This document shows positions 3,366 to 44,248 of a stretch of DNA of 64,000 nt, piece after piece; the stretch's first letter is position 1; each line of letters starts with the position of its first letter. The notes under the pieces were generated by a model. That model had not been told where the DNA came from. It saw only the letters and a program-made list of their open reading frames with translations, and did not search any database. Source of the DNA: a virus (taxonomy: Duplodnaviria; Caudoviricetes); the IMG/VR virus record IMGVR_UViG_3300042731_008397, positions 68,055 to 132,054 of that record. One strand, written 5' to 3'. The position numbers and the translations under genes were made by a program.

Positions 3366-4726
3366 AGATAACGGTGCAAGAAAACCCATTCTATCCCTTT
3401 AGGGATGGGAGGAATTGCGCCACGGGCGAAAGCCCGTCAAAAAAAGTGTTCTTTGAGATAAAAAAACCTTGACAATAATAAAAAGCTTTGTTTTTCTAGT
3501 AGCCATGATTCACAAAGCGTTTAAATACCGACTTTCACCAACACAAGCGCAACAAGAGGTTATTGCCAGGACGTTTGGGTGTTGTCGCTATGTGTATAAT
3601 TGGGGTCTGTCTGAGAAAGTGAAGGCGTATGAGCAGGAGAAACAGACGCTTTCCTGTGTTGATCTCATTAAGCGCCTAACGACCTTAAAACAAGAACTCC
3701 CCTGGTTGAAAGAGGTGTACTCGCAAGCATTACAGATGTCCTTACGGAATCTTGACAATGCCTTTACCCGGTTTTTTAAGAAGTTAGGCGGGTTTCCGAA
3801 GTTCAAGTCACGGAAGAATCATCACCAATCCTGTCAATTTCCACAGGGCGTCAAAGTCGATTTTGAGAAGAAGACGGTCTATCTGCCAAAAATAGGAGAT
3901 GTTCATCTAAAGATGCGAAAAAAAACGCATATCTTTGACGGAAAGATTAAAACTGTCACGTTACGGCAGACCCCCTCTGGGAAATATTTTGTCAGTCTCT
4001 TGGTGGAACTTGACCAGGAACTTCCGAAAAAACCACCAATTGAACTAAAGACAACCGTAGGCGTGGATATGGGAATTAAGACCTTTGTCACGTTGTCAAC
4101 GGGGGAAGAGATTGAGCATCCAAAGACCCTGAAGAAGTCATTAAAGACGTTAAAACGCTTACAGCGTCAACTCTCTCGAAAGCAGAAAGGCAGTCGCAAC
4201 CGGGACAAAGCCAGGAAACGATTGGCAAAATTACATGAACATGTCAGTAATCAGCGTGAAGATTTTTTGCATCAAGTCTCTCATCGGTTAACGAGTGAGA
4301 ACCAAGCTACAACGATAGCGATGGAAGACTTGCATATTGCTGGCATGGTGAAAAATCACAAACTGGCTCAGGCCATCATAGATAGCGCCTGGGGGATGTT
4401 TGACAACTTCGTGGCGTATAAATGTGACTGGCGTGGCAAGAACCATCTGCATATCCATCGGTTTGCCGCGAGCAGCCGGATTTGTTCGTTGTGTGGGTGG
4501 TATAATACTGAATTAACCCTAAAAGACCGTGTATGGACATGTGGCGGGTGCGGCGCAAAACGCCCCCGCGATCTCAATGCTGCGAAGAATATTCGCAAAT
4601 GGAGCGTCCATCCACAAAATATGGTAGGTCTGACATAACCGATGTTAAGCCTGGGGAGTGTTGCCGGTAGGTGACACGACGAACCAGGAAGGAATCCCAG
4701 GTGCTTCAGCCCTGGGAGGATGTCAA
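3366..4726 (+). mobile_element. IS200/IS605-family tnpB-only (IS1341-like) element 1
   Basis: TTAT at 3362-3365, left-end hairpin ~3385-3410, tnpB, right end GAAT-hairpin-GTCAA ending at 4726. Confidence 0.8.
3505..4638 (+). CDS. tnpB: RNA-guided endonuclease TnpB
   Basis: KAFKYRL HTH start; RuvC D (GVDMG), E (MEDL), D (RDLNAAKNI); CxxC..CxxC zinc finger; ATG at 3505 preferred. Confidence 0.95.
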   Translation: MIHKAFKYRLSPTQAQQEVIARTFGCCRYVYNWGLSEKVKAYEQEKQTLSCVDLIKRLTTLKQELPWLKEVYSQALQMSLRNLDNAFTRFFKKLGGFPKFKSRKNHHQSCQFPQGVKVDFEKKTVYLPKIGDVHLKMRKKTHIFDGKIKTVTLRQTPSGKYFVSLLVELDQELPKKPPIELKTTVGVDMGIKTFVTLSTGEEIEHPKTLKKSLKTLKRLQRQLSRKQKGSRNRDKARKRLAKLHEHVSNQREDFLHQVSHRLTSENQATTIAMEDLHIAGMVKNHKLAQAIIDSAWGMFDNFVAYKCDWRGKNHLHIHRFAASSRICSLCGWYNTELTLKDRVWTCGGCGAKRPRDLNAAKNIRKWSVHPQNMVGLT

Positions 4727-30774: not shown

Positions 30775-31977
30775 CTACCTCGCTAATTGACGGGTTGCTT
30801 CTAACAATTCCGTCTGTAAAGGTTTATATTTCGGGTGGTCTTTTGTGTATTGTTCCACTTGAGTCTCAATAGCGTCCTCAAGTGTAACCGTGACCGCCTG
30901 TTGCTCCGTGTCTCGGTGTAAAGGGGTTATTTCGACATGGGATATAAAATGAACACCTTTTTGTTTAAACAACTTAAAGATGGAAGAAAGCATCCCACGA
31001 ACTGCCATTATCCGGTCAGTGCGGATTTCAATTTTGACAATTGCCCTTTCAATATTGTAACTGAGTAAGGCAGTTTCGATTTTTTCAAGAGAGTCAATCC
31101 CTTCCATCGTAAAACAAAATTGATGAAACTCTCTTGCAGGGGATTCTATAAAATCATATTCTCCGAAATCTGTTCTTCGGAGAGTCACAAAAACCCCTCC
31201 TTTCGGGTCATTTCGTTCTCCAAACGTAACCCGTTCAAGTGTCCCTGAATATACTATTGGAGGCGTATTTGACACCCCAATAGAATGATCATTCCCGATA
31301 TTCTGGTATTTATGAATATGTCCCATTGCCACGTATTGGACTTCAGGAAATGTAAAAAGATGTCGAGGGACAACCGGCTCCGTTCGTCCTGGCATAGAGA
31401 GTCTTCTCTCTGTGCCTTCATAGGTAGCCCCCTCAATTCCAAAATGCCCTAAAAAGATTGTCGGAATGGTATCTAACCCTTGTAACAGCATTTGGATTGT
31501 CTCTGTGTATCCAGCCTCTAAATCTGGATATTGAGATGGCAGTAACCACGGAACAGCGATAACCCTTAAAGGCAAGCCTTTTTTTGTCTCTATAACCCTG
31601 CTACAGGGGGTTTTTAGAATGAATAGTGATTTGAAAGTAAATTCTCCTAATGCCTGAAGAAGGGAAATCCCTTGGGCACTATTAGGGAGATCATGATTCC
31701 CTGGTATCATGATAATAGGAATTTTTTCTTGTGTCACGGGTTGCAATGCCTGAGCTAACTTCGCTATATACACGGGCTCCATAGACCATGTGTGGCAAAT
31801 ATCTCCTGCAATAACCAAAGCGTCCATATCCCGTTCTAATCCGGTTTTAATTAGAAATGTCAAGCTGTTTAGGATGTCCTGAGTTCGTGAATGTATCCGA
31901 GTCACCGGATCAAAACGCCCGTGTGTTCTCATGTTCAGGTGAATATCGCCTAAATGTAGAAATTTTATAGTATCCAT
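30775..31977 (-). CDS. sbcD: SbcD/Mre11 nuclease
   Basis: DIHL, AGD, GNHD, GH and MGHIH metallophosphoesterase motifs. Confidence 0.92.
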   Translation of the reverse strand: MDTIKFLHLGDIHLNMRTHGRFDPVTRIHSRTQDILNSLTFLIKTGLERDMDALVIAGDICHTWSMEPVYIAKLAQALQPVTQEKIPIIMIPGNHDLPNSAQGISLLQALGEFTFKSLFILKTPCSRVIETKKGLPLRVIAVPWLLPSQYPDLEAGYTETIQMLLQGLDTIPTIFLGHFGIEGATYEGTERRLSMPGRTEPVVPRHLFTFPEVQYVAMGHIHKYQNIGNDHSIGVSNTPPIVYSGTLERVTFGERNDPKGGVFVTLRRTDFGEYDFIESPAREFHQFCFTMEGIDSLEKIETALLSYNIERAIVKIEIRTDRIMAVRGMLSSIFKLFKQKGVHFISHVEITPLHRDTEQQAVTVTLEDAIETQVEQYTKDHPKYKPLQTELLEATRQLAR

Positions 31978-32003
31978 TTTTCTCCTTTTTTAATTGCAGT
32001 CCT

Positions 32004-32157
32004 GTAAGGCTCCCCATCTTGTGGGGAGTACGGTTTCCTGGCTTAGGTGTAAGGGTGAAAGTGTCCGTAACTGGGAACGTCGTTGCGGAGTTCCAGTACT
32101 TACATCTATTTAGCACGTCCTCAGAACCGGGTATCTCCCGGTTAAAGCTGAGGTAAG
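32004..32157 (-). ncRNA. Structured RNA family B, copy 1 (IscB/IsrB omegaRNA-like)
   Basis: CCTCAG..CTGAGG ACGTGC; TAGATGTAAG/CTTACACCTA stem; loop GACGTTCCCA; CAGGAAACC; CTCCCCACAAGATGGGGAG CCTTAC. Confidence 0.75.
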
Positions 32158-32382
32158 CGTCCATTTAGATACAATGATTTGATCTGTGAAAGTTCCGGTT
32201 TCAGAGAAAGGTTGGGTTTGAGTGCATCTGAATTGATCCCGACTTTCGGGTGGATCGCTACAAATACCATATTCTCCACTGATGTCCCGGCAATTTTCTT
32301 CTAATAAGAAAAAATATAACAGGAAAAAGCCTATTACAGGTTTTCCTTCTGGTGTTGTTTCGATTAATTCTTGTAAGGTCAT
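32110..32382 (-). CDS. Hypothetical protein
   Basis: AAGGAG RBS and upstream TTGACA; 3' end runs into RNA copy 1. Confidence 0.4.
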   Translation of the reverse strand: MTLQELIETTPEGKPVIGFFLLYFFLLEENCRDISGEYGICSDPPESRDQFRCTQTQPFSETGTFTDQIIVSKWTLTSALTGRYPVLRTC

Positions 32383-32460
32383 CTCTTCTCCTTATAAAAC
32401 AAATATGATAATGTCAAGACATTTTTTCTGAGTAGTCAACATAAATAGCGAAAAAGCCCG

Positions 32461-32655
32461 TTAGACAAAGCCTTTTTCCTCTGCTAACCATCGAGGAAGT
32501 TTAATGGTTGTTACTTCGCCCGTCATTATATCGGACTCATCAAATTCAATTTGGCTTATCGGCAACCATATCTCTTCATCCCCGTAAGCAACGAGGATCG
32601 CCATATCGGTAGCTTGTATTATATCACCTTCGATTTCTACTATTTCTTCTGCCAT
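32461..32655 (-). CDS. Small acidic phage protein
   Basis: ATDMAILV..GDEEIWLPISQI..LPRWLAEEKG, a common phage-type motif. Confidence 0.65.
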   Translation of the reverse strand: MAEEIVEIEGDIIQATDMAILVAYGDEEIWLPISQIEFDESDIMTGEVTTIKLPRWLAEEKGFV

Positions 32656-32661
32656 TACCCG

Positions 32662-32958
32662 TTATAAGAGGCTCATTTGGACTCCCTGAATTCCAAATCT
32701 TGACGGATTCTCTAAAATCATCCAAAATGTAATTAGAACCGCACGGATTTTGAGGAGTTCACGGTCTCTTTCCAGTTTTGACCGCTCTAAGGCATCATTG
32801 ACTAGCTTTTCGATATAACGGTCACCTGCCCGAGGATCAAGTTCATGGATACGTCTTGCAAACTCAGCCGCCCCAGGTATCGGCGGTTGATCTAACCGCA
32901 TTATAAACCAGGGGTCATACTTCTCCAAGATTACCCGTTGTAAGGGGGTCATTGTCAT
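32662..32958 (-). CDS. Hypothetical protein
   Basis: In an operon; ends QMSLL. Confidence 0.5.
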   Translation of the reverse strand: MTMTPLQRVILEKYDPWFIMRLDQPPIPGAAEFARRIHELDPRAGDRYIEKLVNDALERSKLERDRELLKIRAVLITFWMILENPSRFGIQGVQMSLL

Positions 32959-33035
32959 TAGTGTTATTCCAAATAATGTAAATGCTCCAATTCTTCGGCT
33001 TCTTTTTTACTTTCCGGGTGTTCTTTTGCCAGAGC

Positions 33036-33275
33036 CTAGGCAATCTTCTGTAACCACGGGTCATGAATGTCTAATTGATCGGCAATCCATTCGTATTTGC
33101 CCGGATCACGGAGTACCTCAAGGACGATATTCAAACATAATTCAAGGTCTTCTCTGTCTAACCCGTCAGGCAAAAGAACTGACCGGTCATAATCATCTTT
33201 TGGGACAAGTTGAACCATCCCGTCATACGGAGAGGAAAGTTCAATCGGAATAATGCTTATCGGTTGTTTTAGCAT
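33036..33275 (-). CDS. Hypothetical protein
   Basis: GAGG RBS. Confidence 0.5.
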   Translation of the reverse strand: MLKQPISIIPIELSSPYDGMVQLVPKDDYDRSVLLPDGLDREDLELCLNIVLEVLRDPGKYEWIADQLDIHDPWLQKIA

Positions 33276-33302
33276 AAATAGTTCCTCTTGTTGTTGTTAA
33301 TA

Positions 33303-33402
33303 TTGTCAAATTTCGATTGTAAGACGTTGGAACGTCAATCCCTATACCTATAGGGGTTATGTCCCAAAGTCCTCATGTGGCGTCTCTCAGAGCGCCAGAG
33401 TG
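33303..33402 (-). repeat. Dispersed element A, copy 3
   Basis: Minus strand ctctggcgctctgagagacgcc...cccctataggtatagggattgacgttcc...ttacaatcgaaatttgaca. Confidence 0.85.
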
Positions 33403-33407
33403 TTAAA

Positions 33408-33632
33408 TTATTTGTATGCCGTGCCTGCTTTCCAATTTAGCATCAAAGCCACGTTAAAGATACGTTCAGCCTGATATTTCACGTTTTTAGGTAAATCATC
33501 CCATGCCCATTCTTGGATTTTATGCTTTTTTAGGGCACATCCACGGGCAAGAGACACTTTCGGGCCTGAAAGAATACATTTTATAACAAGTGCCCGTTGC
33601 CAAGTCTCCATGATGTTCCAAAGTTCTTTCAC
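33408..33632 (-). CDS. Hypothetical protein
   Basis: Overlaps the sbcC stop. Confidence 0.45.
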   Translation of the reverse strand: MKELWNIMETWQRALVIKCILSGPKVSLARGCALKKHKIQEWAWDDLPKNVKYQAERIFNVALMLNWKAGTAYK

Positions 33633-36238
33633 GTTATGACGGCTAATGTTGAGCCTTCGCCTGGAATCTTGTTTACTTCAATCCTCGCGGGGAATTGCTC
33701 TTTTAGTTCCTCTATATGGGTGATAACAATGATTTTTAAGAAGTCTTCAGCCAGATCATATATTGCCCTTAAAAAATTCTCCCGTCCTTCGGCGTCTTGA
33801 CTGCCAAATCCTTCGTCAATAACAAGCACTTTTAACGGAAGCCCGGTATGTCGTTTACAAAGTAATTGCGCCAGTCCTACCCGGATGGCAAAGTTGATCC
33901 GGAACTGTTCTCCGCCCGAAAATAACTCATAAGGCTGTTCAAACCCTCCGTACTGGCACATAATTTCTAACAGTTCAACCGTGTTACCTGAACCCGTTTC
34001 ATATTCGGTTTTGAAATAGATAGCCGCGCCTCTCAAGAGACGTTGAAGGATGTCGTTTACTTCTTTCTCAAACTCTGGTAACGCTGTTGTTGTTAACCAT
34101 GCGGGGATTCCGTCTCTTCCAAAAATCTCTTGTAGGTATGCAAAGACCTGGACATTCTTTTCTAATCGGGCAATTTCCACAGAAAGCTCCGCAAGTGTGT
34201 TCATAAGCTCCTCTTGACGGGTTGTTAATGCTTCTTTTTGCCCAACACGGCGTTGTAGCATATCACAAGATTGTTGCCAACTCTGGACTGACCGGGTGAT
34301 TTCATCCAAATGACGGGTATCTTGCTGCAAGGTTTCAATTTTTTGTCTCAGGTCTTCCCGTTCTTTGGTCAACCTTTCAATCTTCAGTAAAAGATCACCA
34401 ATACGCTGTTCTTCCTGCTCACAAATTGGCGTAAGGGTTTCAACGCCCGATTTGGCGACGGTTAGCTGTTCATATAAAACATTATTGTTTTGTAATTCCT
34501 TATCTCCGAGTAACACTCGGATTCTTTCGTGTTCCTCGGCATCATATTCAGGAAGGACCAACTTATTCAGTTTTTCCTCAAGAGATTCTTTGTATTCTCC
34601 CGTCTTAAGGAGCGTTTGCAGTTTCTCATAACGCTGTCTTTTGACACTTATACTTGCCTGAAGGTATGTTATATCTTCTGTAACCGATGTTAAGCGTTCC
34701 GCTATTCGGGTTAATTCAACCTGTGTATCCCGTACCACGTCAAGAGTCTGTTCTATTTCGGCATGTCTTGTATTTAGCTCCGGTTGTTTGCTTTTTATTG
34801 CCATGTTTGCCTCTGCAAACTTCCTTGATTTCTCTTTTTCCCGAATAAGTTCTATAAGAAGCCGTTTAAACGCTTCTTCAGAGAGAGGTTGACTACAAAG
34901 CGGGCACTCTGCCGTTCCTTCCGGGGCTTCTTCAAGAAATTTTATCTTTTTGTTTAATTCTTGCTCTTGGGTTAACAACCGCTTTGTCTCCTCGCTACGG
35001 GCATTGTCTTCCGAAAAAGCCTCTCGGAGGTCTTTTTCGCAAATTACCCGTTGCTCTTCCAATTCAATTATTCTCTGTTCAACCTTTATACGGGAGCTTA
35101 ACCGCTCTTCAAGTTCAGTTTTTTCTTTTTGCTTCTCTTCTAACTGTAAGGTTTCCGTTTCAAGGGCTTCCTGGGTTGTTTTTAAGTCTTTTTCAAGATT
35201 TCGTTTAAGCTCCTCTATGCGGGTCAAGATGACCTTTTGTTCAGAGCTTATCCGTAAAAACTCCTGGTAAACCTGATCGATGGATGACGCCTTTATCCGG
35301 GCTTCTTCATAAACCGTATGCGCCTTGACAACCTCTTCTTCCTTTTTAAGAATTTCATGGTATTGTTGGATTGTTTCTTTATGGGCATTTAATGACCGAT
35401 CGAGGGATATTTTTGTCTCTTCTACCCCCGTAACCTCTTGTGAGATGGTTGTGATCCGTTCTTTTGCCTTATTAAGCTCTATTTCCTGAGCTTTTAGTTT
35501 TTGAAGAGTCTCTTTTTCATGCTCTAATCGGGCTTTGGCGACCCCTAAGTCTTTTTCAACATCTTTAAGTTCCTTCAAGTCTTCCGTTACCTGTTCTAAA
35601 GCTGCCGTACTTTGGGAAAAGTGATACTGTAAGCCTCCCAACTTCCCCGCAAATTGGTCATGTTCCTGCTTTGCTTTTCTACTGAGGACTTTAAATCTCT
35701 CCAATCCGATTACTTCATGAAATATTTCCTTTCTTTGGGCTGGACGGGCTTCTGTAAATCTTCCGGCATTATTTTGTTTTAAAAAGACCGAGGAAACGAA
35801 GGTTTCAAATCTCATCCCCACTATTCGGGTGATCTCTTCCTGTGTTCCTTTATTTGTTTTCCCCGTTAATGACCGAAATTTGGGGGAAATTTGTTCAAAA
35901 GTGATTTTCATTGTACTTTTATCCAGATCATGTGAAGAAGATAGATAAAGTTCCCGATAGACGGTGAATGTGCTATTGTTTTTGTCAAGTAACCGGAATG
36001 TAAATTCAACCGAGCACGATCTGGTACCATGCCGGATCACCCCAGTTCCTGGGGTAGCCTTTCGCCCTGCTTTCCGTGCTTGTCCCCAAATTGCCCAGGT
36101 TAAGGCGTCAAGTAATGAGGATTTTCCATTTCCGTTCTGTCCCGAAAGGCAAATTAAATGCAGTTCCTCGAAATTGATTTCCGGGACATCTTCGCCGTAA
36201 CATAAAAAATTACTTACTTTCAATGTTACTGGTATCAT
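33629..36238 (-). CDS. sbcC: SbcC/Rad50 SMC-type ATPase
   Basis: GQNGNGKSS, Q-loop, coiled coils, CPLC hook, FSGGE, IDEGFGSQD, ITH. Confidence 0.95.
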   Translation of the reverse strand: MIPVTLKVSNFLCYGEDVPEINFEELHLICLSGQNGNGKSSLLDALTWAIWGQARKAGRKATPGTGVIRHGTRSCSVEFTFRLLDKNNSTFTVYRELYLSSSHDLDKSTMKITFEQISPKFRSLTGKTNKGTQEEITRIVGMRFETFVSSVFLKQNNAGRFTEARPAQRKEIFHEVIGLERFKVLSRKAKQEHDQFAGKLGGLQYHFSQSTAALEQVTEDLKELKDVEKDLGVAKARLEHEKETLQKLKAQEIELNKAKERITTISQEVTGVEETKISLDRSLNAHKETIQQYHEILKKEEEVVKAHTVYEEARIKASSIDQVYQEFLRISSEQKVILTRIEELKRNLEKDLKTTQEALETETLQLEEKQKEKTELEERLSSRIKVEQRIIELEEQRVICEKDLREAFSEDNARSEETKRLLTQEQELNKKIKFLEEAPEGTAECPLCSQPLSEEAFKRLLIELIREKEKSRKFAEANMAIKSKQPELNTRHAEIEQTLDVVRDTQVELTRIAERLTSVTEDITYLQASISVKRQRYEKLQTLLKTGEYKESLEEKLNKLVLPEYDAEEHERIRVLLGDKELQNNNVLYEQLTVAKSGVETLTPICEQEEQRIGDLLLKIERLTKEREDLRQKIETLQQDTRHLDEITRSVQSWQQSCDMLQRRVGQKEALTTRQEELMNTLAELSVEIARLEKNVQVFAYLQEIFGRDGIPAWLTTTALPEFEKEVNDILQRLLRGAAIYFKTEYETGSGNTVELLEIMCQYGGFEQPYELFSGGEQFRINFAIRVGLAQLLCKRHTGLPLKVLVIDEGFGSQDAEGRENFLRAIYDLAEDFLKIIVITHIEELKEQFPARIEVNKIPGEGSTLAVIT

Positions 36239-36455
36239 TGTCTTCTCTTCCCGTTAGCCGGTCAATAAATGCCATTGCTTTTGTAATCGCTTCTGACCGT
36301 TGCGCGGGCAGTCCTATTATAAACCGATATTGTTTTCTCACAAAATACCCGTCTTTTGCAGGTTCTCTGACCTGAATTGTTGCCGTTTTTTTCCGTCCTT
36401 TTCCTGCTTTTCCATGCCCCTCCGATTGGGCAATGTCATATCCTTTGTATCGCAT
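36210..36455 (-). CDS. Small basic hypothetical protein
   Basis: 81 aa upstream of sbcC. Confidence 0.5.
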   Translation of the reverse strand: MRYKGYDIAQSEGHGKAGKGRKKTATIQVREPAKDGYFVRKQYRFIIGLPAQRSEAITKAMAFIDRLTGREDNDTSNIESK

Positions 36456-36596
36456 CTTTCAATTTCCTTCAGAAATCTCTGAAAGCGTTTGGAGGAAGGC
36501 GCGAGCCTCCCTCGCTGGACGTGAAATGCGCCACATAGCCGGTCAACATTTCTGCCTTCCGGGTACTTTTTCTTTGAGTCAACACCGTATCCAGGA

Positions 36597-37343
36597 TTAA
36601 CTATTGTACTGTATTACCGGGACATAACCTTCTTTAGCCTGCCAGAGTCCTAATTGTACGGGCCTTTCCTGCGTTACTGGCTCACGCGGTTTTTGGTAAT
36701 GAGGACAATCAATATTCCCGATTTTTGACTCACATTCGGCGCATAACCGCCATTGACGGTCTTTATCCTCCCACGCGGTTTTTTCGACCTGTTCACCGCC
36801 TGGGCATAGAACCGTCTCCCGATATTTCGGGCACGGATCGGGATATTCGGTAAAATATTCCGGATCGCCGCACTCTTTGAGGTCTTCATTCCAACAAAGG
36901 CATGTATGGCATTTGTCAAGCGGATACTTGTAAAGATAAACAACATCATCCGCCCCGGCTTGAAAAAATTCAACCAGCCATTGTTCTCCGTGTAAGTAAC
37001 GGACATATCCAGAGTTTTCTTCTATATCATACCACGATATTTCAATATAGTAAACTCCCGATTCAAGGCTGGTTTTTTCAATGCTGCCTTTCCATAAGTT
37101 CTCTTTTGTCTCCATCACGGCAAAAGGAGCTAACACTTCCCGAACAAGGCGATTCCGCTCCTCTTGAAAATTATAGCCCGGAGCGGCATATACCATTTTA
37201 GGGATCGGGAAAGGCCCTCCTTTCCCTTTTACCAATGTCCCATTACGGACATATTTGTTTAAAAGTCGTTTCTCTTCTTTCGATAACTGCCCAATGTCGG
37301 TTATAGATTTAGCAATAGCTCTTTGAATTAATTTTGGCGACAT
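36597..37343 (-). CDS. Cys-rich hypothetical protein
   Basis: CHTC, CAEC and further Cys clusters. Confidence 0.55.
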   Translation of the reverse strand: MSPKLIQRAIAKSITDIGQLSKEEKRLLNKYVRNGTLVKGKGGPFPIPKMVYAAPGYNFQEERNRLVREVLAPFAVMETKENLWKGSIEKTSLESGVYYIEISWYDIEENSGYVRYLHGEQWLVEFFQAGADDVVYLYKYPLDKCHTCLCWNEDLKECGDPEYFTEYPDPCPKYRETVLCPGGEQVEKTAWEDKDRQWRLCAECESKIGNIDCPHYQKPREPVTQERPVQLGLWQAKEGYVPVIQYNS

Positions 37344-37360
37344 TATTATATTTTTCTCTT

Positions 37361-37511
37361 GAAAAGCTCCCTATCTTGTAGGGAGTACCGGTTCCCTGAC
37401 CTGGGTACAGGGGTGACAGAGTTTACAAGTGGGAACGTCCTCATAAAGTGTCGTTACCTATATCCATGTGGCACGTCTTTATCCCCACCCGTTAGGCGAA
37501 CATAAAGTAAG
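37361..37511 (-). ncRNA. Structured RNA family B, copy 2
   Basis: CTTTAT..ATAAAG ACGTGC; TGGATATAGG/CCTGTACCCA; GACGTTCCCA loop; CAGGGAACC; CTCCCTACAAGATAGGGAG. Confidence 0.78.
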
Positions 37512-37900
37512 TATAGTCTTTAAAAAACTTCATATCTTATAACTTGCCCAGTTTCAGGGGCTTTTGAGTACCTTTTTTCAGAGCGAATTTAAAAAACTTG
37601 AAAACTACAATTTCCCCGGTTTCAGGGAGTTTTACTTTTTATGTTTATAAGATGTTAAGTTTTTTGAATATAGTCTTTAAAAAACTTAACATCTTACAAC
37701 ATCCCCATCTTCAGGGAGATTAGAGCATGTTTTTTGTATAAGTTTTCAAATTTTTTGACCCTATATATTTCTTTTTAAAATTTCTCTTTAAGAGAAATAA
37801 TATTAAATATATCATTCAAAAAACTTAAAAACTATGGCTAAAATCTTCTGAGTCTGACTGATTAACGGGACTTCTGTAAGATGTTAAGTTTTTTGAATTC
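37512..37900. repeat. Iteron-like repeat cluster, putative replication origin
   Basis: About seven copies in both orientations of TT(T/C)AAAAAACTT(A/C/G)A.A.CT; three T(T/C)TTCAGGG boxes; very AT-rich segment 37760-37830; near the initiator-like gene. Confidence 0.7.
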
Positions 37901-37980
37901 TTATAGTGAATTTTCACGTCAAATTCCTGACTTTGCCCTATTAGCAGCCGCTTTCTCGGAATTCAAATAATTTGAATTCC

Positions 37981-38340
37981 CTAAAAACTCCCGCTATACA
38001 GTCGGCAAGAGTTTAATCGGTTGAATTTTTTCATAACAATATTTTCAGAGAGCCCATACCTTGTTTCTAATCGGGCAATAGCCGCTCTTATTCGGTCCAT
38101 CTCATTGTTAGTCCGGTGAAATGCTGCCCAGTTCATGGTCTCCTGGATGACCTTACCTTTCCCTCCGTCTTCATATTCAGCTTGACCCCATAGATAATCG
38201 AGGTACTGACTTAACTGTTCCCATCTTTCGGCTTTTTTGACCAATCGTTTTTCTTCAGGAGACAGTCCTTTATAAGTAATCTTTAGTCGCCGTGTCCGGA
38301 TCTGGTCTTCTCTGATATTTGCTTTTAAATACTTTTGCAT
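37981..38340 (-). CDS. Hypothetical protein
   Basis: 119 aa ORF. Confidence 0.5.
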   Translation of the reverse strand: MQKYLKANIREDQIRTRRLKITYKGLSPEEKRLVKKAERWEQLSQYLDYLWGQAEYEDGGKGKVIQETMNWAAFHRTNNEMDRIRAAIARLETRYGLSENIVMKKFNRLNSCRLYSGSF

Positions 38341-38354
38341 AGTTTCTAAAAAAT

Positions 38355-38454
38355 ACTCTCTGGCACTCTGAGAGACGCCGTATGGCTCTTTCTCTCATAA
38401 TCCCCTATGAGTATAGGGATTGACATTCCGACTGCTTACAATCGAAATTTGGCA
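38355..38454 (+). repeat. Dispersed element A, copy 4
   Basis: ctctctggcactctgagagacgcc...cccctatgagtatagggattgacattccgactgcttacaatcgaaatttggca. Confidence 0.85.
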
Positions 38455-38456
38455 CG

Positions 38457-39164
38457 TTATGAGACGTTTTCGGTTTTATGTAGCTTAACCAGCACAGGCC
38501 CCATAAGGCTAATAACGTCATCGGATTTCCATTCAGAAAGTTCCCATTCTCTTGTTAAGTCTTGCCGGGTTTCTTGATCACCTCCTGAAGCCCGTAACAA
38601 GAGTTGTTGCAATAATGATGGCTGATCTGGATGTTCGCTAAACCACTGTATAGCGGGCGTCAACTCGTTTCTTCTCCATTCTTTCCAATCAAATTGAGGA
38701 GATGTTTGTACCGGAGCCCCAGTATGCGGTAAAGGAATAACCGGAGTAGTAGAGGATGTTGGACGTAATTTGATTTCTTGTATGATTGCGGTTTCTTCTT
38801 TTTGGCATATAAGGGCGGTCAGCGGCAGAAGATTAACCCGAAAATGCCGCCGTGTGGCGAATTGACGTTTTAATGCTCGAACCTCTCTGAAAAGTACCGT
38901 CTCCGGGATCTTTTCCAACGTTTTTTGTTGCTGGTAATATGAGAGAAGAGTGTCCTTCTCCATTTGTGGAACGGTTTTCCAAAATGTTCCGTCAGGCTGA
39001 AGTTGACCAGCTAAAATAAAGTAAATCTGTTGACTTGTTAAATAGAGCATAATCCGGTCTGCCGGTGTCCCCCAAACTGCCGTAAGACGGTAAAGGACAA
39101 TCCAAGTATCTCTCGGAATAATATCGAAAAACATTGGAGCTATTAAAGAATTGACATCTTCCAT
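38457..39164 (-). CDS. Putative replication initiator (N-terminal winged HTH)
   Basis: FWKTVPQMEKDTLLSYYQQQKTL...RRHFRVN resembles phage initiator wHTH domains; iterons nearby. Confidence 0.55.
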   Translation of the reverse strand: MEDVNSLIAPMFFDIIPRDTWIVLYRLTAVWGTPADRIMLYLTSQQIYFILAGQLQPDGTFWKTVPQMEKDTLLSYYQQQKTLEKIPETVLFREVRALKRQFATRRHFRVNLLPLTALICQKEETAIIQEIKLRPTSSTTPVIPLPHTGAPVQTSPQFDWKEWRRNELTPAIQWFSEHPDQPSLLQQLLLRASGGDQETRQDLTREWELSEWKSDDVISLMGPVLVKLHKTENVS

Positions 39165-39391
39165 AGAATTTACTTGACAAGAAGATACCTATAGGAGATA
39201 GTTGGCAATACTTCATATAGGCATTTCTGGTTAGTTGTCTTTTCTTAGGTGACTTGTGTACGGGACAAGTCACCTAAGCGAAATTCCTCAATCGTTTGTT
39301 ATTTCAAAAACCTTCGTTTCAAATTCTTTGTTGATCGGGATCTTAACATAGCTTATTTGCCGTGTGTCAGTACTCGGTGACACCCTTCCCT

Positions 39392-39536
39392 GTAAGGCTC
39401 CCCATCTTGTGGGGAGTGTCGGTTCCCTGACGTCGGTGTTGGGGTGGCAGGGCCTGCAAGTGGGAACGTCCTCGCAGGGTGTCGGTACCAACATCGGTGC
39501 CGCACGTCCTTATAACGAAGTCATTAATAAGGTAGA
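39392..39536 (-). ncRNA. Structured RNA family B, copy 3
   Basis: CCTTAT..ATAAGG ACGTGC; CGATGTTGG/CCAACACCG; CCTGC/GCAGG; same loop, GGGAAC and terminal hairpin. Confidence 0.78.
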
Positions 39537-39553
39537 GTGATACGAATTTTTAC

Positions 39554-39582
39554 ACTCTAAAAAAGTGGTAAAGAATTGTCAA
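39554..39582 (-). promoter_or_regulatory. Sigma70 promoter driving RNA B copy 3 and rep
   Basis: TTGACA-17-TAGAGT. Confidence 0.55.
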
Positions 39583-39668
39583 GAATTTTTTTAAACGCTT
39601 TACTATTCAGAGAAAGGGCGGACTCCGCCCTTTGACAAACACACGGGCATTTTAATAAAAAAAATAGC

Positions 39669-39696
39669 TTGACATTTTCAAATATTATTTTATGAT
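39669..39696 (+). promoter_or_regulatory. Sigma70 promoter driving RNA B copy 4 and the parM operon
   Basis: TTGACA-16-TATGAT. Confidence 0.6.
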
Positions 39697-39717
39697 AGTT
39701 TTTATGATAAAATAATA

Positions 39718-39897
39718 GTCGCTTCACTGTTGTACGGGTGTAGGAGGTTGCACTTCTTTAAGACCGCCCGTGTCGGCGTGAAGACGCGCCAGATGGATAT
39801 AAGTAACGGCACCTTATGAGGACATTCCCACTTGTAAGCTCTGTCACCCTTATACCCAGGTCAGGGAACCGTACTCCCCACAAGATGGGGAGATTGC
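39718..39897 (+). ncRNA. Structured RNA family B, copy 4
   Basis: CTTCAC..GTGAAG ACGCGC; TGGATATAAG/CTTATACCCA; GACATTCCCA; CAGGGAACC; CTCCCCACAAGATGGGGAG. Confidence 0.78.
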
Positions 39898-39944
39898 TGT
39901 AATCACAAACCATGTATTAACCCCGAAAAAAGGAGTACACACGT

Positions 39945-40271
39945 ATGTCAAAAGTAACCACAAATCGAATTACGAAAGACCAGATTTTGGGCTTTCATTC
40001 CACGCTTGTTATGACCATTGCCGCTCTAATTAAACAACGGTCAAACATCAATGCTGAACCGCTGTTTAGTCCCCCGCCTAAAGGGAAAGAAGAAGAAAAT
40101 AAACCGACAACAAAAGAACTGGGGCAGCGGCATGAAATTGACCTCAATACGGCATTTGCGTCGATCCATGCTGAACAGAAAAGGGCACAGCTTACCGTAT
40201 TGGACGCAAAAGTTGACGTATTAACCGATGTATTAACCCAATTTGAGGAAGCATTTGGAGTTGAAAGATAA
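39945..40271 (+). CDS. Hypothetical protein
   Basis: AAGGAG RBS. Confidence 0.6.
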   Translation: MSKVTTNRITKDQILGFHSTLVMTIAALIKQRSNINAEPLFSPPPKGKEEENKPTTKELGQRHEIDLNTAFASIHAEQKRAQLTVLDAKVDVLTDVLTQFEEAFGVER

Positions 40272-40308
40272 TCCAAGATGCTTCTCTTTCCCAGTAAAAG
40301 GAGACCCT

Positions 40309-41376
40309 ATGTTACCAAACAAAAAAATTTCTGTCGGGTTGGATCTTGGAGGAATGTCAACCAAAATAGTGCTTTCTGAAAAAGCCGGGACAATTGATAA
40401 ACATTACCATTTGTCGGCTACTAAGGCGATATTAGACCAGAAAGATCATTTTAAACTCTTTGCAGACCAGCCGTTTACGTTAGACCTTCCACATAAACGC
40501 CATTTCAGCCAGTTAGCGGCATTGATCAAAGGTTGTACCTATTCTTTGGATTCTCTTTCAACCCCGGATTCTCCACATACGGAAACGCTTGTTATCGGGT
40601 CTATTCTGCATGGACTATCACCTGAGATAACAGAGGCTATAATTTATCTGACCGTGGGAATCCCGGAAGGCAAAGATGAAATCGGAAAAGGATTTGTCCA
40701 GCATTATCGAGGTAAACACATTACGGGCAAACTCAAAGGTCGTCCTGAAGTCAATTTGGTGTTTAAATATATAGACTGGGATTACCAAGCTATTTGGGGA
40801 GTCCTGGGAAAATCTTTGTCATATTCCCCAAATGGCAGCATTGACGAAGATGAAGAAGTCGGAGAATCCCATTATGTGGTCATAGATGGAGGATCAGCGC
40901 AAATCAAAGTTTGCGAAGTCTTGCCGGGTTATGTTCTTGGCCCCCATGATTCGGAAGAAAACGGAACATGGACATATTTGAAAGAACTCCGGCGAATCCT
41001 TCAATCGGTTCATAAAGGGAAATATTTACCATTTACCGTTATGCAAGCCCTGACGAAGGGCGAATTGACTACAGGAAATGATAACTACCCCGTTGCCAAG
41101 AATTTCAAGCCGATCATTGAGGAATATTGCGCCGGGGTTGTCAATCTTGTCCGTAATACGGTTTCTGACTGGACAAATATTCGGAAAGTTTTCATTATGG
41201 GCGGTATGGCAGAATTTCTACTCCCAGTCATCCGAAATACATACGGGCCTGATGTCGGTGAGGATCATATTGTTATCATCTCAGATGACCCGATTTTCTT
41301 TATGGCACAAAGCATGGAGATTTCCTCCCGATATGAGATACTGTATGGTGAGGAGTCAGGACATGCCGATTCATAA
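40309..41376 (+). CDS. parM: ParM/StbA-like actin ATPase
   Basis: VGLDLGG..TK, LTVGIP, VVIDGGS, FIMGGMA actin-fold motifs. Confidence 0.8.
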   Translation: MLPNKKISVGLDLGGMSTKIVLSEKAGTIDKHYHLSATKAILDQKDHFKLFADQPFTLDLPHKRHFSQLAALIKGCTYSLDSLSTPDSPHTETLVIGSILHGLSPEITEAIIYLTVGIPEGKDEIGKGFVQHYRGKHITGKLKGRPEVNLVFKYIDWDYQAIWGVLGKSLSYSPNGSIDEDEEVGESHYVVIDGGSAQIKVCEVLPGYVLGPHDSEENGTWTYLKELRRILQSVHKGKYLPFTVMQALTKGELTTGNDNYPVAKNFKPIIEEYCAGVVNLVRNTVSDWTNIRKVFIMGGMAEFLLPVIRNTYGPDVGEDHIVIISDDPIFFMAQSMEISSRYEILYGEESGHADS

Positions 41377-42790: not shown

Positions 42791-43123
42791 ATGGAAGTTT
42801 TAGATGGCGGAAAAGACAAAAAAGAACAACCGGAGGTTACGGAAACCCCGCAAAAAGGGCAAAAAGATAAGCCGAAACCGGCTTTCCCGACTGCATTAGA
42901 TAAGGTTATGGATGATGTCCGGGAACACCTTGAAACGGCTCTTCCAAAAGCTATTGAAGGAGTTAAGGAAACGATGGAGAAGGCATCTGTCACTGTTACG
43001 GTCGAAATGGGGTATAATAAACATGATGAACTTGTGACCACGGTCGGCGGACGGGTCAATATCCCCATGAAAAAGAGTGTCCATGAAGGAGAAATCTTGG
43101 ATGGTCAGCTCCATTTTTGGTAA
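42791..43123 (+). CDS. Hypothetical protein
   Basis: 110 aa; ends GQLHFW. Confidence 0.6.
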   Translation: MEVLDGGKDKKEQPEVTETPQKGQKDKPKPAFPTALDKVMDDVREHLETALPKAIEGVKETMEKASVTVTVEMGYNKHDELVTTVGGRVNIPMKKSVHEGEILDGQLHFW

Positions 43124-43127
43124 ACAT

Positions 43128-43225
43128 CACCAAATTTCATTTCTAAGCGTTCGGAAGTCCAGCCCCTATACACATAGGGGCTATATCCCAAAGTCCTCAT
43201 GTAGCGTCTCTCAGAGCACCAGAGA
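43128..43225 (-). repeat. Dispersed element A, copy 6
   Basis: Left arm nearly identical to copy 3; cccctatgtgtatagggg core. Confidence 0.85.
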
Positions 43226-43231
43226 ATGATT

Positions 43232-44248
43232 TCAAGAAGTGGTGATCTGGAACATAAAAGGGATTACCAACAAAAGATATTTGATATTCCCATAACCAAC
43301 AAGGATCCCTGCCAATATAAAATACGCATAAGGGTGCCATGAAATACACCATAACGGGAAAAGATAGAACGGAATTGCCTTTAAAGAGGCGCATGATAAA
43401 TGTACCCATCTCCATTTCAATGAATGGAAGAGCTTTAGCATGAGTTTTTTGAGCACATTTTTTCTTGGGAGTGTATTGCTTGGTCGTCGGTACATCGAAT
43501 AAAGCCCACCTGAAAATTGATGTAGCAGAAAGCGGGCGTGAAGATGGCCCCAGTACCATTTTGACGCCCACCATCCATAGATCCCTCCACCTATAATCGG
43601 TAGCGTGATTGAAAAAGAAGGCCACAGCATCGGAATTAAGAATGGCACTACAATAATCGTTGAATATTTCAGGAAACACGCCAAAAGTATTGTGACTCCT
43701 GCAAACCATCTATGATGCATTTGGATAAAACGTAGTGCAATAAGTACCAGACCAAACGCATACAAGTCATTCATTGGCTGTAATGACATTATTTGCATAA
43801 GTGGGGTGGCTGCGATTAACAACATTTGTGTACGCCCATATAACACGATACATAATTTTAAACATACGCCGGTCCAAAAAAGGGCATAAATTTGCTGTAA
43901 GAAATAAGAAGGAGTTTGCGCAACCAGCCACGTAAATAGCGGCGGTTGCAGCTTAACGTAGTTGCAAAATGGAAGTGTCTCAAGAAATTGATGAACGGAT
44001 AATCCGTGGAGAAGATAAAGTTGATTCCAGGTTATTCGCACATCAATGCAGAGCATAGAGCCTTTGAACCCCACAAGAAGATTTAATAAATAACACAAAA
44101 GAATTCGTTCTGATGTCCAAGTATACTCAATAGCCAAAAAACAGATAAGCATATTTACACATATAATTATCCACTGTAGACAAGACAATGATAAACTATC
44201 TTTAAACACCAACCCAACCACTAATAGCCTCCGGGCACTTCGATCCAA
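43232..44248 (-). CDS. Polytopic membrane protein, GT-C glycosyltransferase-like
   Basis: Many TM helices; LQPPLF, QPMND and LKY motifs. Confidence 0.55.
   Translation of the reverse strand: MDRSARRLLVVGLVFKDSLSLSCLQWIIICVNMLICFLAIEYTWTSERILLCYLLNLLVGFKGSMLCIDVRITWNQLYLLHGLSVHQFLETLPFCNYVKLQPPLFTWLVAQTPSYFLQQIYALFWTGVCLKLCIVLYGRTQMLLIAATPLMQIMSLQPMNDLYAFGLVLIALRFIQMHHRWFAGVTILLACFLKYSTIIVVPFLIPMLWPSFSITLPIIGGGIYGWWASKWYWGHLHARFLLHQFSGGLYSMYRRPSNTLPRKNVLKKLMLKLFHSLKWRWVHLSCASLKAIPFYLFPLWCISWHPYAYFILAGILVGYGNIKYLLLVIPFMFQITTS

Follow-up and report, generated by a model that had tools for sequence, protein, structure and literature searches.

The virus record IMGVR_UViG_3300042731_008397 of IMG/VR (132,054 bases, classed as linear, CheckV completeness 95) carries the genes of a tailed phage, including those for a major head protein, a head maturation protease and a tape-measure protein, together with genes for DnaB, a DnaG-type primase, SbcC, SbcD, an SNF2 helicase and a ParM-like partition protein. 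On this sequence, a phage-plasmid lifestyle would be plausible. The stretch analyzed here (the window) is the 64 kb corresponding to bases 68055-132054 of the record; positions in the window are given as plain numbers, and positions in the whole record carry the prefix C1. An earlier reading of the window (the original prediction) had pointed to four dispersed copies of a structured RNA between 32004 and 39897, likened them to the omegaRNA of IscB/IsrB, and named a new cis-regulatory RNA as the alternative. In the present study, we found that the record holds eight copies of this RNA, that the copies share a covarying fold, and that all of them precede, in the sense of the gene, genes of DNA metabolism or maintenance. 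The evidence favours the alternative, a new cis-regulatory RNA, and not the omegaRNA.

A covariance model, R1, was built from the four window copies and used to search the record, and all 21 candidates of a first look were scored with it. On the whole record R1 gave exactly eight matches (125-172 bits, E 8e-28 to 9e-39; Table 1). The alignment and the count of the 3' motif bear out the four window copies at the coordinates and on the strands originally given for them. These four are alike (69-71% mean column identity), and their 19-nt 3' hairpin motif occurs four times in the window, where 0.02 occurrences are expected by chance; four or more were reached in none of 100 shuffles. The copies measure 135-181 nt, typically ~140 nt, with a conserved core of ~120 nt. 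The elements first noticed in the window copies, namely the 5' stems, ACGYGC, the loop GACRUUCCCA and the hairpin CUCCCYACAAGAURGGGAG, were all found again. The downstream GGGAAC segment was present in three of the four, the copy at 32004 reading GGAAAC.

In the structure shared by the eight copies, a 5' hairpin, P1, is closed by six conserved pairs, contains an insert of 1 to ~45 nt (97.9% of P1 cells paired) and is followed by GACGYGC. Next comes a long interrupted hairpin, P2-P5 (helices 2 to 5), of ~26 pairs, which is capped by the conserved 10-nt loop GACGUUCCCA. A conserved single-stranded segment, CAGGGAACCG, follows P2-P5 and can pair with the apical loop. The RNA ends with P6, an invariant 7-bp hairpin, and the tail CCUUAC, after which AGGR is usual; a U-tract after P6 is absent. 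For the four window copies, RNAalifold gave 39 pairs, 15 of which show compensatory changes. Over the eight distinct copies, standard pairing was found in 95.2% of 312 cells, and 16 of the 39 pairs were changed on both sides. The pairing or covariation score of the eight copies was reached by none of 500 column shuffles, and when the 3' partners were slid by one to three columns the pairing fell to 31-44%. The covarying common fold proposed for the window copies thus extends to all eight, and the number of copies together with the strength of the covariation indicates selection on the structure.

The candidate pseudoknot, GUUCCC of the loop with GGGAAC of the single-stranded segment, is complementary in 45 of 48 cells of the eight copies. 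Three of its six pairs are invariant and the other three deviate only through unpaired cells. Since these three variant positions break pairs and none compensates, covariation neither supports nor refutes the pseudoknot; the loop-to-3' pairing of the original prediction is upheld in its complementarity, but none of its six pairs covaries. In contigs of two metagenome runs (X2 and X5, described below), the position of the pseudoknot mismatch in copy 5 reads G, and the pair is restored. In the same contigs, the C.A mismatch in helix 5 of copy 5 is a U-A pair and the adjoining A-U is G.U, as read on the sense strand. These strain variants, the co-orientation of the copies with the downstream gene (eight of eight), the excess of G.U over A.C cells (20 vs 10 among the 312) and the fold z-scores of copy 7 (sense -3.23, antisense -1.80) favour the gene-sense strand as the strand of the structure. 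An all-against-all column scan for further tertiary pairs was too noisy to use.

The genes downstream of all eight copies belong to DNA metabolism or maintenance; no copy stands before a head or tail gene. The operons concerned are those for replication, partition, recombination (sbcCD) and 7-deazaguanine-type DNA modification. Each copy is co-oriented with and upstream of a gene, as had been claimed, but not always just upstream, the distances from tail to start codon being 9, 10, 16, 26, ~50, ~95, ~220 and ~230 nt. The labels sbcD and parM held: the sbcD open reading frame (ORF) has a Metallophos domain and stands beside an SbcC-like ORF, and the ParM-like gene corresponds to the partition protein phrog_691 (E 2.8e-12). 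The 235-aa ORF after copy 7, which adjoins iteron-like repeats, matched no family in Pfam, PHROGs or NCBIfam, so that its former label of initiator lacks family support. Copies 4, 3 and 2 are intercistronic in one leftward operon, in which a promoter-like site lies 5' of a 322-aa ORF, and the ORF before each of them has its stop codon at P1 or within it; copy 2 directly follows the QueD/PTPS and a radical-SAM gene. The copies also recur along operons, three along a leftward unit of ~12 kb starting at 39536 and three along C1 65.8 to 56 kb. Upstream of copies 7 and 8, two sigma-70-like promoter sites stand back to back, with predicted starts ~10-15 nt before the copies. Among the 29 promoter-like sites in 31500-40500, that of copy 8 has the top score; that of copy 7 is listed second, its score of 10/12 being common to seven sites in this region.

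Table 1. Copies of the RNA, nearby promoter-like sites and the second repeat family. Plain numbers, window; C1, whole record.
Feature	Position	Strand	Remarks
Copy 1	C1 42079-42223	+	R1 match; PIG-L-family deacetylase downstream
Copy 2	C1 57706-57850	-	R1 match; downstream a small ORF, then a GTP-cyclohydrolase-like gene (sequence read by eye)
Copy 3	C1 63539-63673	-	R1 match; flanks a 323-aa ORF of unknown family
Copy 4	C1 64674-64854	-	R1 match; on the other flank of the 323-aa ORF of copy 3
Copy 5	32004-32157 (C1 100058-100211)	-	171.8 bits; 26 nt 5' of the sbcD start codon; sbcD and primase follow
Copy 6	37361-37511 (C1 105415-105565)	-	162.5 bits; 16 nt 5' of a 248-aa Cys-rich ORF; sbcC also follows
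Copy 7	39392-39536 (C1 107446-107590)	-	157.6 bits; 5' end of putative leftward transcript with the 235-aa ORF
Copy 8	39718-39897 (C1 107772-107951)	+	154.5 bits; 5' end of putative rightward transcript with a 108-aa ORF and the ParM-like gene
Sigma-70-like promoter site	39669..39696	+	TTGACA-16 nt-TATGAT, 11/12; ends ~22 nt before copy 8; consensus match only
Sigma-70-like promoter site	39554..39582	-	TTGACA-17 nt-TAGAGT, 10/12; ends ~18 nt before copy 7; consensus match only
Second repeat family	~33295-33415		
Second repeat family	~38343-38463	-	
Second repeat family	~43119-43239		
Second repeat family	C1 6113, 15369, 39580, 43344, 49149		

Several features of the surrounding DNA were observed along with the copies. 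Copies 2-4 are interleaved with an apparent cluster for 7-deazaguanine or queuosine precursors (C1 56243-62687), in which QueD/PTPS and two radical-SAM proteins are encoded; a GTP-cyclohydrolase-I-like ORF and a Dam-like methylase were assigned to the same cluster by reading the sequence by eye. Iteron-like direct repeats of ~28 nt lie in 37520-37930, 5' of copy 6, and at C1 ~40 kb (39970-40070), and a 22-nt tandem iteron-like unit lies near a 264-aa ORF (C1 ~40345-40470). Both sets of iteron-like repeats may represent an origin, a centromere or an operator. A perfect 44-nt inverted repeat (C1 42033-42076 and 45248-45291) brackets copy 1, the PIG-L gene and an IS607-like serine recombinase with its TnpB; its left arm ends 2 nt before copy 1 and its right arm begins at the tnpB stop codon. 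The segment between the arms may be invertible or recently rearranged. No tRNA genes were detected in the window.

The RNA did not correspond to a described family. None of the 4,227 Rfam families matched the copies when the window was searched at the gathering score, and at E<=10 the region 31500-40500 gave 11 weak matches, none touching a copy; a known riboswitch or ribozyme, which would have spoken against a new RNA, was therefore not found at the copies even at this relaxed threshold. Searches for relatives elsewhere were made with exact motifs or at high identity. Three motif patterns gave no match each in the IMG/VR viral contigs, a motif scan of 185,579 species genomes gave none, and neither did the strict motif in the JGI metagenome contigs. 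The looser motif returned at least 117 stretches from these contigs, at chance level, and none of the 80 loci examined passed R1 at E<=1. Copy 8 found no match by blastn in phage and plasmid collections. When genes were used as anchors, the capsid gene (for kin phages) gave no loci and neither did the 611-aa effector gene described below, and the Cys-rich ORF gave one locus, in which only the N-terminal 45 aa are common and whose record has no copy of the RNA. A search for the host through TnpB gave only ~50%-identical matches from several phyla. Distant relatives could be missed by searches of this kind, and near-identical records may be absent from the collections. Judged by Rfam and by the lack of found relatives, and not by a literature search for the motif, the RNA family is undescribed.

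The fold and the operon positions bear on two explanations that would assign the RNA to a functional class. A ribozyme that cleaves itself, or a dedicated module for RNase processing, would sever the polycistronic transcript at every copy, so that the downstream mRNA begins with a structured 5' end. Such a module is consistent with the large number of invariant unpaired nucleotides at junctions and in loops, with the candidate loop/3' pseudoknot, with the overlap of intercistronic copies with upstream stop codons and with the recurrence of copies along long operons; moreover, the ~26-bp helix of P2-P5 would be long enough for a double-strand-specific RNase. However, no Rfam ribozyme matched even at E<=10, no conserved cleavage-site dinucleotide was identified in the copies, and we regard cleavage as rather unlikely. 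A riboswitch-like sensor, with a core that would recognise a metabolite or a second messenger and adjust a regulon of replication and maintenance genes, accords with the conserved core, the covarying peripheral stems, the candidate pseudoknot and the 5' leader position of copies 7 and 8. Against such a sensor, no expression platform is recognisable, P6 being invariant, without a U-tract, and 9 to ~230 nt away from the start codon. Furthermore, three copies are intercistronic, Rfam gave no match, and the downstream genes have no common metabolic theme. A sensor is thus very unlikely in our estimation.

The resemblance to the IscB/IsrB omegaRNA did not survive comparison. The HEARO model (RF02033) had no match at E<=10 in the whole 132-kb record, and neither the RRXRR family (PF14239) nor the HNH family (PF01844) had one at E<=1; the absence of an iscB gene, stated in the original prediction, was upheld by these results, and PLMP-RuvC proteins sought through RRXRR were likewise absent from the rest of the record. 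The phage RNA and the HEARO or IscB/IsrB omegaRNA have in common that they are structured, that a loop pairs with a single strand as a pseudoknot, and that a genome holds several copies. In the part of PMC9581776 consulted, the IsrB omegaRNA is described as ~300 nt long, with four stems, eight stem-loops and two pseudoknots, preceded by the guide and the guide-adaptor. The phage RNA, with a core of ~120 nt and one candidate pseudoknot, is about half the size of an omegaRNA (~200-300 nt, two pseudoknots), and its 5' end is a closed hairpin, whereas the omegaRNA has guide and guide-adaptor there. With no RF02033 match, no RRXRR or HNH protein, and a 5' end that is paired and not a free guide, identity with the IscB/IsrB omegaRNA was rejected.

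The record contains five TnpB-family genes, one of which shares an IS607-like unit with a serine recombinase. One of the five belongs to a miniature type V-like locus of clustered regularly interspaced short palindromic repeats (CRISPR), at C1 24640-27433, outside the window. Its 611-aa effector consists of OrfB_IS605 and TNB domains and scores 103.5 bits with the NCBIfam model guided_TnpB (cut-off 100), with no named Cas12 subtype; compared with homologues of ~420 aa, it has a Cys-rich N-terminal extension and an insertion of ~55 aa. In the family of this effector, G replaces the RuvC-II glutamate, and the family alignment has an invariant alternative E. The RIIr-5 rearrangement, as described in the section of PMC10691335 that was consulted, includes the same RuvC-II substitution; given this published rearrangement and the invariant alternative E, a nuclease-dead reading of the effector was dropped. 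The array begins 339 nt after the effector gene and has nine identical, hairpin-bearing 37-nt repeats and eight spacers of 34-38 nt. The spacers had no match within the record, and a search with the CRISPR repeat gave no matches. An ORF beside the array matches Sigma70_r4, and its called start falls inside the last repeat. The other four TnpB genes are at 4390 (+), 25790 (+), 55697 (-) and C1 44202-45251. Three of them are 28-37% identical to each other, and a similar omegaRNA-like hairpin, with a GTCAA tail, terminates at least two of these three (C1 71523 and 92971).

The phage RNA also resembles the omegaRNA of TnpB and the type V RNAs in its variable 5' stem, its candidate pseudoknot and its terminal hairpin, from which a short tail leads into variable sequence, and tnpB genes and a TnpB-derived CRISPR effector are present in the same phage. 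The differences are that the RNA overlaps no tnpB 3' end in the record, that the omegaRNA ends of tnpB genes, both those of the phage and homologous ones, look different from it, and, compared with the type V trans-activating CRISPR RNA (tracrRNA), that it has no anti-repeat complementarity. None of the eight copies adjoins any of the five TnpB-family genes. The 3' flanks of the phage tnpB genes and of close homologues, compared by eye, end in a different hairpin and tail, and R1, run on 80 IMG/VR loci of homologous TnpBs, gave a single match of 14.3 bits (E 0.37) with the core deleted, and nothing credible. On these three grounds, the omegaRNA of the phage's own TnpBs was rejected as the identity of the RNA. 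Pairing of the CRISPR repeat with each of the eight copies, calculated with RNAduplex, was equalled or bettered by 27-166 of 200 shuffled repeats; as this was no better than shuffled repeats for every copy, the tracrRNA reading was rejected as well. An 11-mer search of the record with 40 nt from each side of the copies returned only other repeat families and chance words, with one exception: a 16-nt exact match between C1 42245-42260, 3' of copy 1, and C1 71430-71445, 5' of the tnpB at C1 71523. This match may be the remnant of the left end of an insertion sequence (IS).

Wetland and marsh metagenome runs contain a diverged form of the stretch, and contigs of four such runs were aligned to the window at 80% likeness; some of the aligned contigs may belong to relatives that are more distant. 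In run X7, a contig of 613 nt contains copy 6 and 37 nt downstream of it (37324-37507) with one mismatch in 184, at a different site. Compared by eye, its flanks agree with the end of the 611-aa effector gene (30 of 30 bases) and with the sequence just beyond (29 of 30), and therefore that strain has a co-oriented copy between the effector gene and the CRISPR leader, at a site that is empty in the record. Run X2, too, has a breakpoint at 37324, where a joint to 36549 skips the Cys-rich ORF. The X2 strain thus seems to be without the 248-aa Cys-rich ORF (36549-37324), with copy 6 and the first seven codons after it kept. Copies 5 and 8, which lie on opposite strands, are joined in a contig in runs X2 and X5, as a chimeric copy or an inversion, and in both runs the stretch of copy 7 is swapped for 184 unaligned letters. 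The joints between copies, the replaced copy and the copy at a new site indicate that the copies recombine and relocate as modules.

The X7 contig is the evidence on which a further explanation almost wholly rests, namely that the RNAs are stand-alone, omegaRNA-like guide scaffolds acting in trans for a TnpB-family protein of the phage, notably the 611-aa effector, with the 3' flank as guide. The copy in X7 lies exactly at the 3' end of the effector gene and in the same orientation, which is the position of a TnpB omegaRNA, and five TnpB-family proteins are encoded in the record. As far as PMC10097598 was consulted, the ISDra2 omegaRNA is described with a dispensable 5' stem, a pseudoknot, a terminal hairpin and a short tail before variable sequence, a layout like that of the phage RNA, and stand-alone omegaRNAs acting in trans are on record in the consulted parts of PMC10691335 and PMC9581776. 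However, the X7 contig is equally explained by a cassette that precedes the CRISPR array as a transcription unit. The effector has its own array of nine repeats, and the repeat pairs with the copies no better than shuffled repeats do, in eight of eight. Copies next to tnpB genes are absent from the record, the tnpB 3' flanks end differently, and R1 found nothing credible at the 80 homologue loci. Other repeats aside, the flanks of the copies have no second match in the record that is longer than chance, and conservation extends to the bases that directly follow the tail (AGGR), which is not expected of a guide. The IscB/IsrB version of this explanation meets, in addition, the lack of a HEARO match and of RRXRR or HNH proteins. 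We therefore consider trans-acting guide scaffolds barely probable. In the most specific form of this idea, the eight RNAs would be domesticated, dispersed scaffolds for the 611-aa TnpB-derived effector with its rearranged RuvC-II, which would use the downstream sequence as guide, either for RNA-guided self-regulation at the starts of the phage operons for replication, partition and repair or for homing to empty alleles in competing phages. That form, too, we hold to be a long shot.

The same rearrangements could suggest a passive repeat, similar to a miniature inverted-repeat transposable element or simply prone to recombination, that has no RNA function, or an element that folds as single-stranded DNA. 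A site filled in one strain and empty in another, and chimeric copies, are consistent with such a repeat, as are a weakly conserved ..AC before P1 in six of the eight copies and the similar CCUUAC at the end of the element. Nevertheless, 16 of the 39 pairs are compensatory while the unpaired nucleotides are invariant, and this combination disfavours a passive repeat. In derivatives of IS200/IS605, the two end hairpins resemble each other, whereas P1 and P6 are dissimilar; the record encodes neither a Y1 or IS110 transposase nor a reverse transcriptase; and all copies are oriented in the sense of the gene, with G.U cells exceeding A.C cells. The comparison of filled and empty sites named in the original prediction therefore turned out in two parts, in that a copy does occupy a site that is empty in the record but the compensatory changes oppose a passive remnant, which we regard as highly improbable.

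A modular cassette with recombination between its copies has a precedent in the promoter/stem-loop (PeSL) cassettes, which, according to the part of PMC2839356 consulted, shuffle modules in T4-type phages. As in that account of PeSLs, repeated intergenic cassettes, recombination between copies and module shuffling among close relatives were found here (X2, X5 and X7). Insofar as the same part of PMC2839356 describes them, PeSLs consist of a promoter and a simple terminator stem-loop, whereas the phage RNA is a covarying, multi-helix structure of ~140 nt; furthermore, a clear consensus promoter was found at only two of its eight copies. A second repeat family was observed in the record (Table 1), with at least eight copies of ~110 nt that form three hairpins, often with a T-run; in the window, no Rfam family matched it. 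Three units headed by the RNA have this family on their 3' side, after PIG-L, the 235-aa ORF and sbcC, and run X2 has a joint between two copies of the family (33400|38402). This second family may be a composite terminator cassette, and the two repeat families look like 5' and 3' cassettes that frame gene modules.

The explanation that we favour is that the RNA is a new cis-acting leader or intercistronic cassette that acts on elongation or on the fate of the mRNA, and we give it about an even chance of being right. From the sequence we infer its transcription, its action in cis and its mechanism. The RNA would be made within the mRNA, either as the first ~150 nt of the transcript or as an intercistronic spacer, and would act in cis on the transcript that carries it. 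Most likely, the nascent RNA would engage RNA polymerase or a factor of phage or host and bring about read-through along the operon; next most likely, it would control the processing or stability of the downstream mRNA. The element itself would be a modular cassette that recombines between copies and can arise at new sites, as PeSLs do. The varied distance to the start codon and the lack of a U-tract after P6 argue against an operator that occludes the ribosome-binding site and against an intrinsic-terminator riboswitch. The promoter-proximal or intercistronic position, the recurrence along operons, the indifference to distance and the lack of a terminator are best accommodated by a mechanism at the level of the polymerase or of the whole transcript.

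Cis-acting RNAs of processive antitermination are known in lambda nut, HK022 put and Bacillus EAR, which are promoter-proximal or lie between the genes of an operon and work independently of the distance to the start codon. Like these, the phage RNA would be a structured RNA that acts in cis, near a promoter or between the genes of long operons and regardless of the distance to the start codon, and it is repeated in a phage genome. It differs from nut, put and EAR in that it matches no Rfam family and that downstream terminators are not enriched. As for antitermination-type placement, a consensus promoter lies directly 5' of two of the eight copies and three of the eight are intercistronic. 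Processive antitermination, or control of elongation, is a tentative proposal, and the other roles in cis, taken jointly (a determinant of stability or processing, or a binding site for a phage regulator), are a possibility of similar standing.

Several points weigh against a cis-acting cassette of this kind. The covariation rests on paralogous copies in one genome and on a few strain variants, as the searches yielded no independent lineage, and gene conversion among the copies could spread linked changes. The many invariant unpaired nucleotides would suit the core of a ribozyme or of a ligand-binding RNA equally well. The nut and put elements are much smaller and simpler, and the phage RNA has eight copies. 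No consensus promoter was demonstrated 5' of copies 1, 5 and 6, and where promoter sites were found they match at the level of the consensus only. Finally, terminator-like sites downstream of the copies were not enriched (11 vs 8.7 expected, and 9 vs 9.4 in a second scan), and antitermination is consequently left without a demonstrated target.

Taken as a whole, the RNA is in our judgement a real and new family of a familiar general kind, that of the cis-acting or regulatory cassette RNAs of phages, but unusually ornate and present in many copies. Its covariation signal is among the clearest that a single genome can give, yet it has no match in the 4,227 Rfam families. The RNA marks a whole functional set of operons of the phage, those for replication, partition, recombination and DNA modification, and it indicates that phage gene modules are reshuffled through structured RNA cassettes, which extends what is known from the PeSLs of T4-type phages. 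If control of elongation or of mRNA fate proves true, the RNA would add a new regulatory device to those of phages and phage-plasmids and supply synthetic operons with a compact, portable part. Should it instead turn out to be a ribozyme, a sensor or a guide scaffold, it would be the first of a new class.

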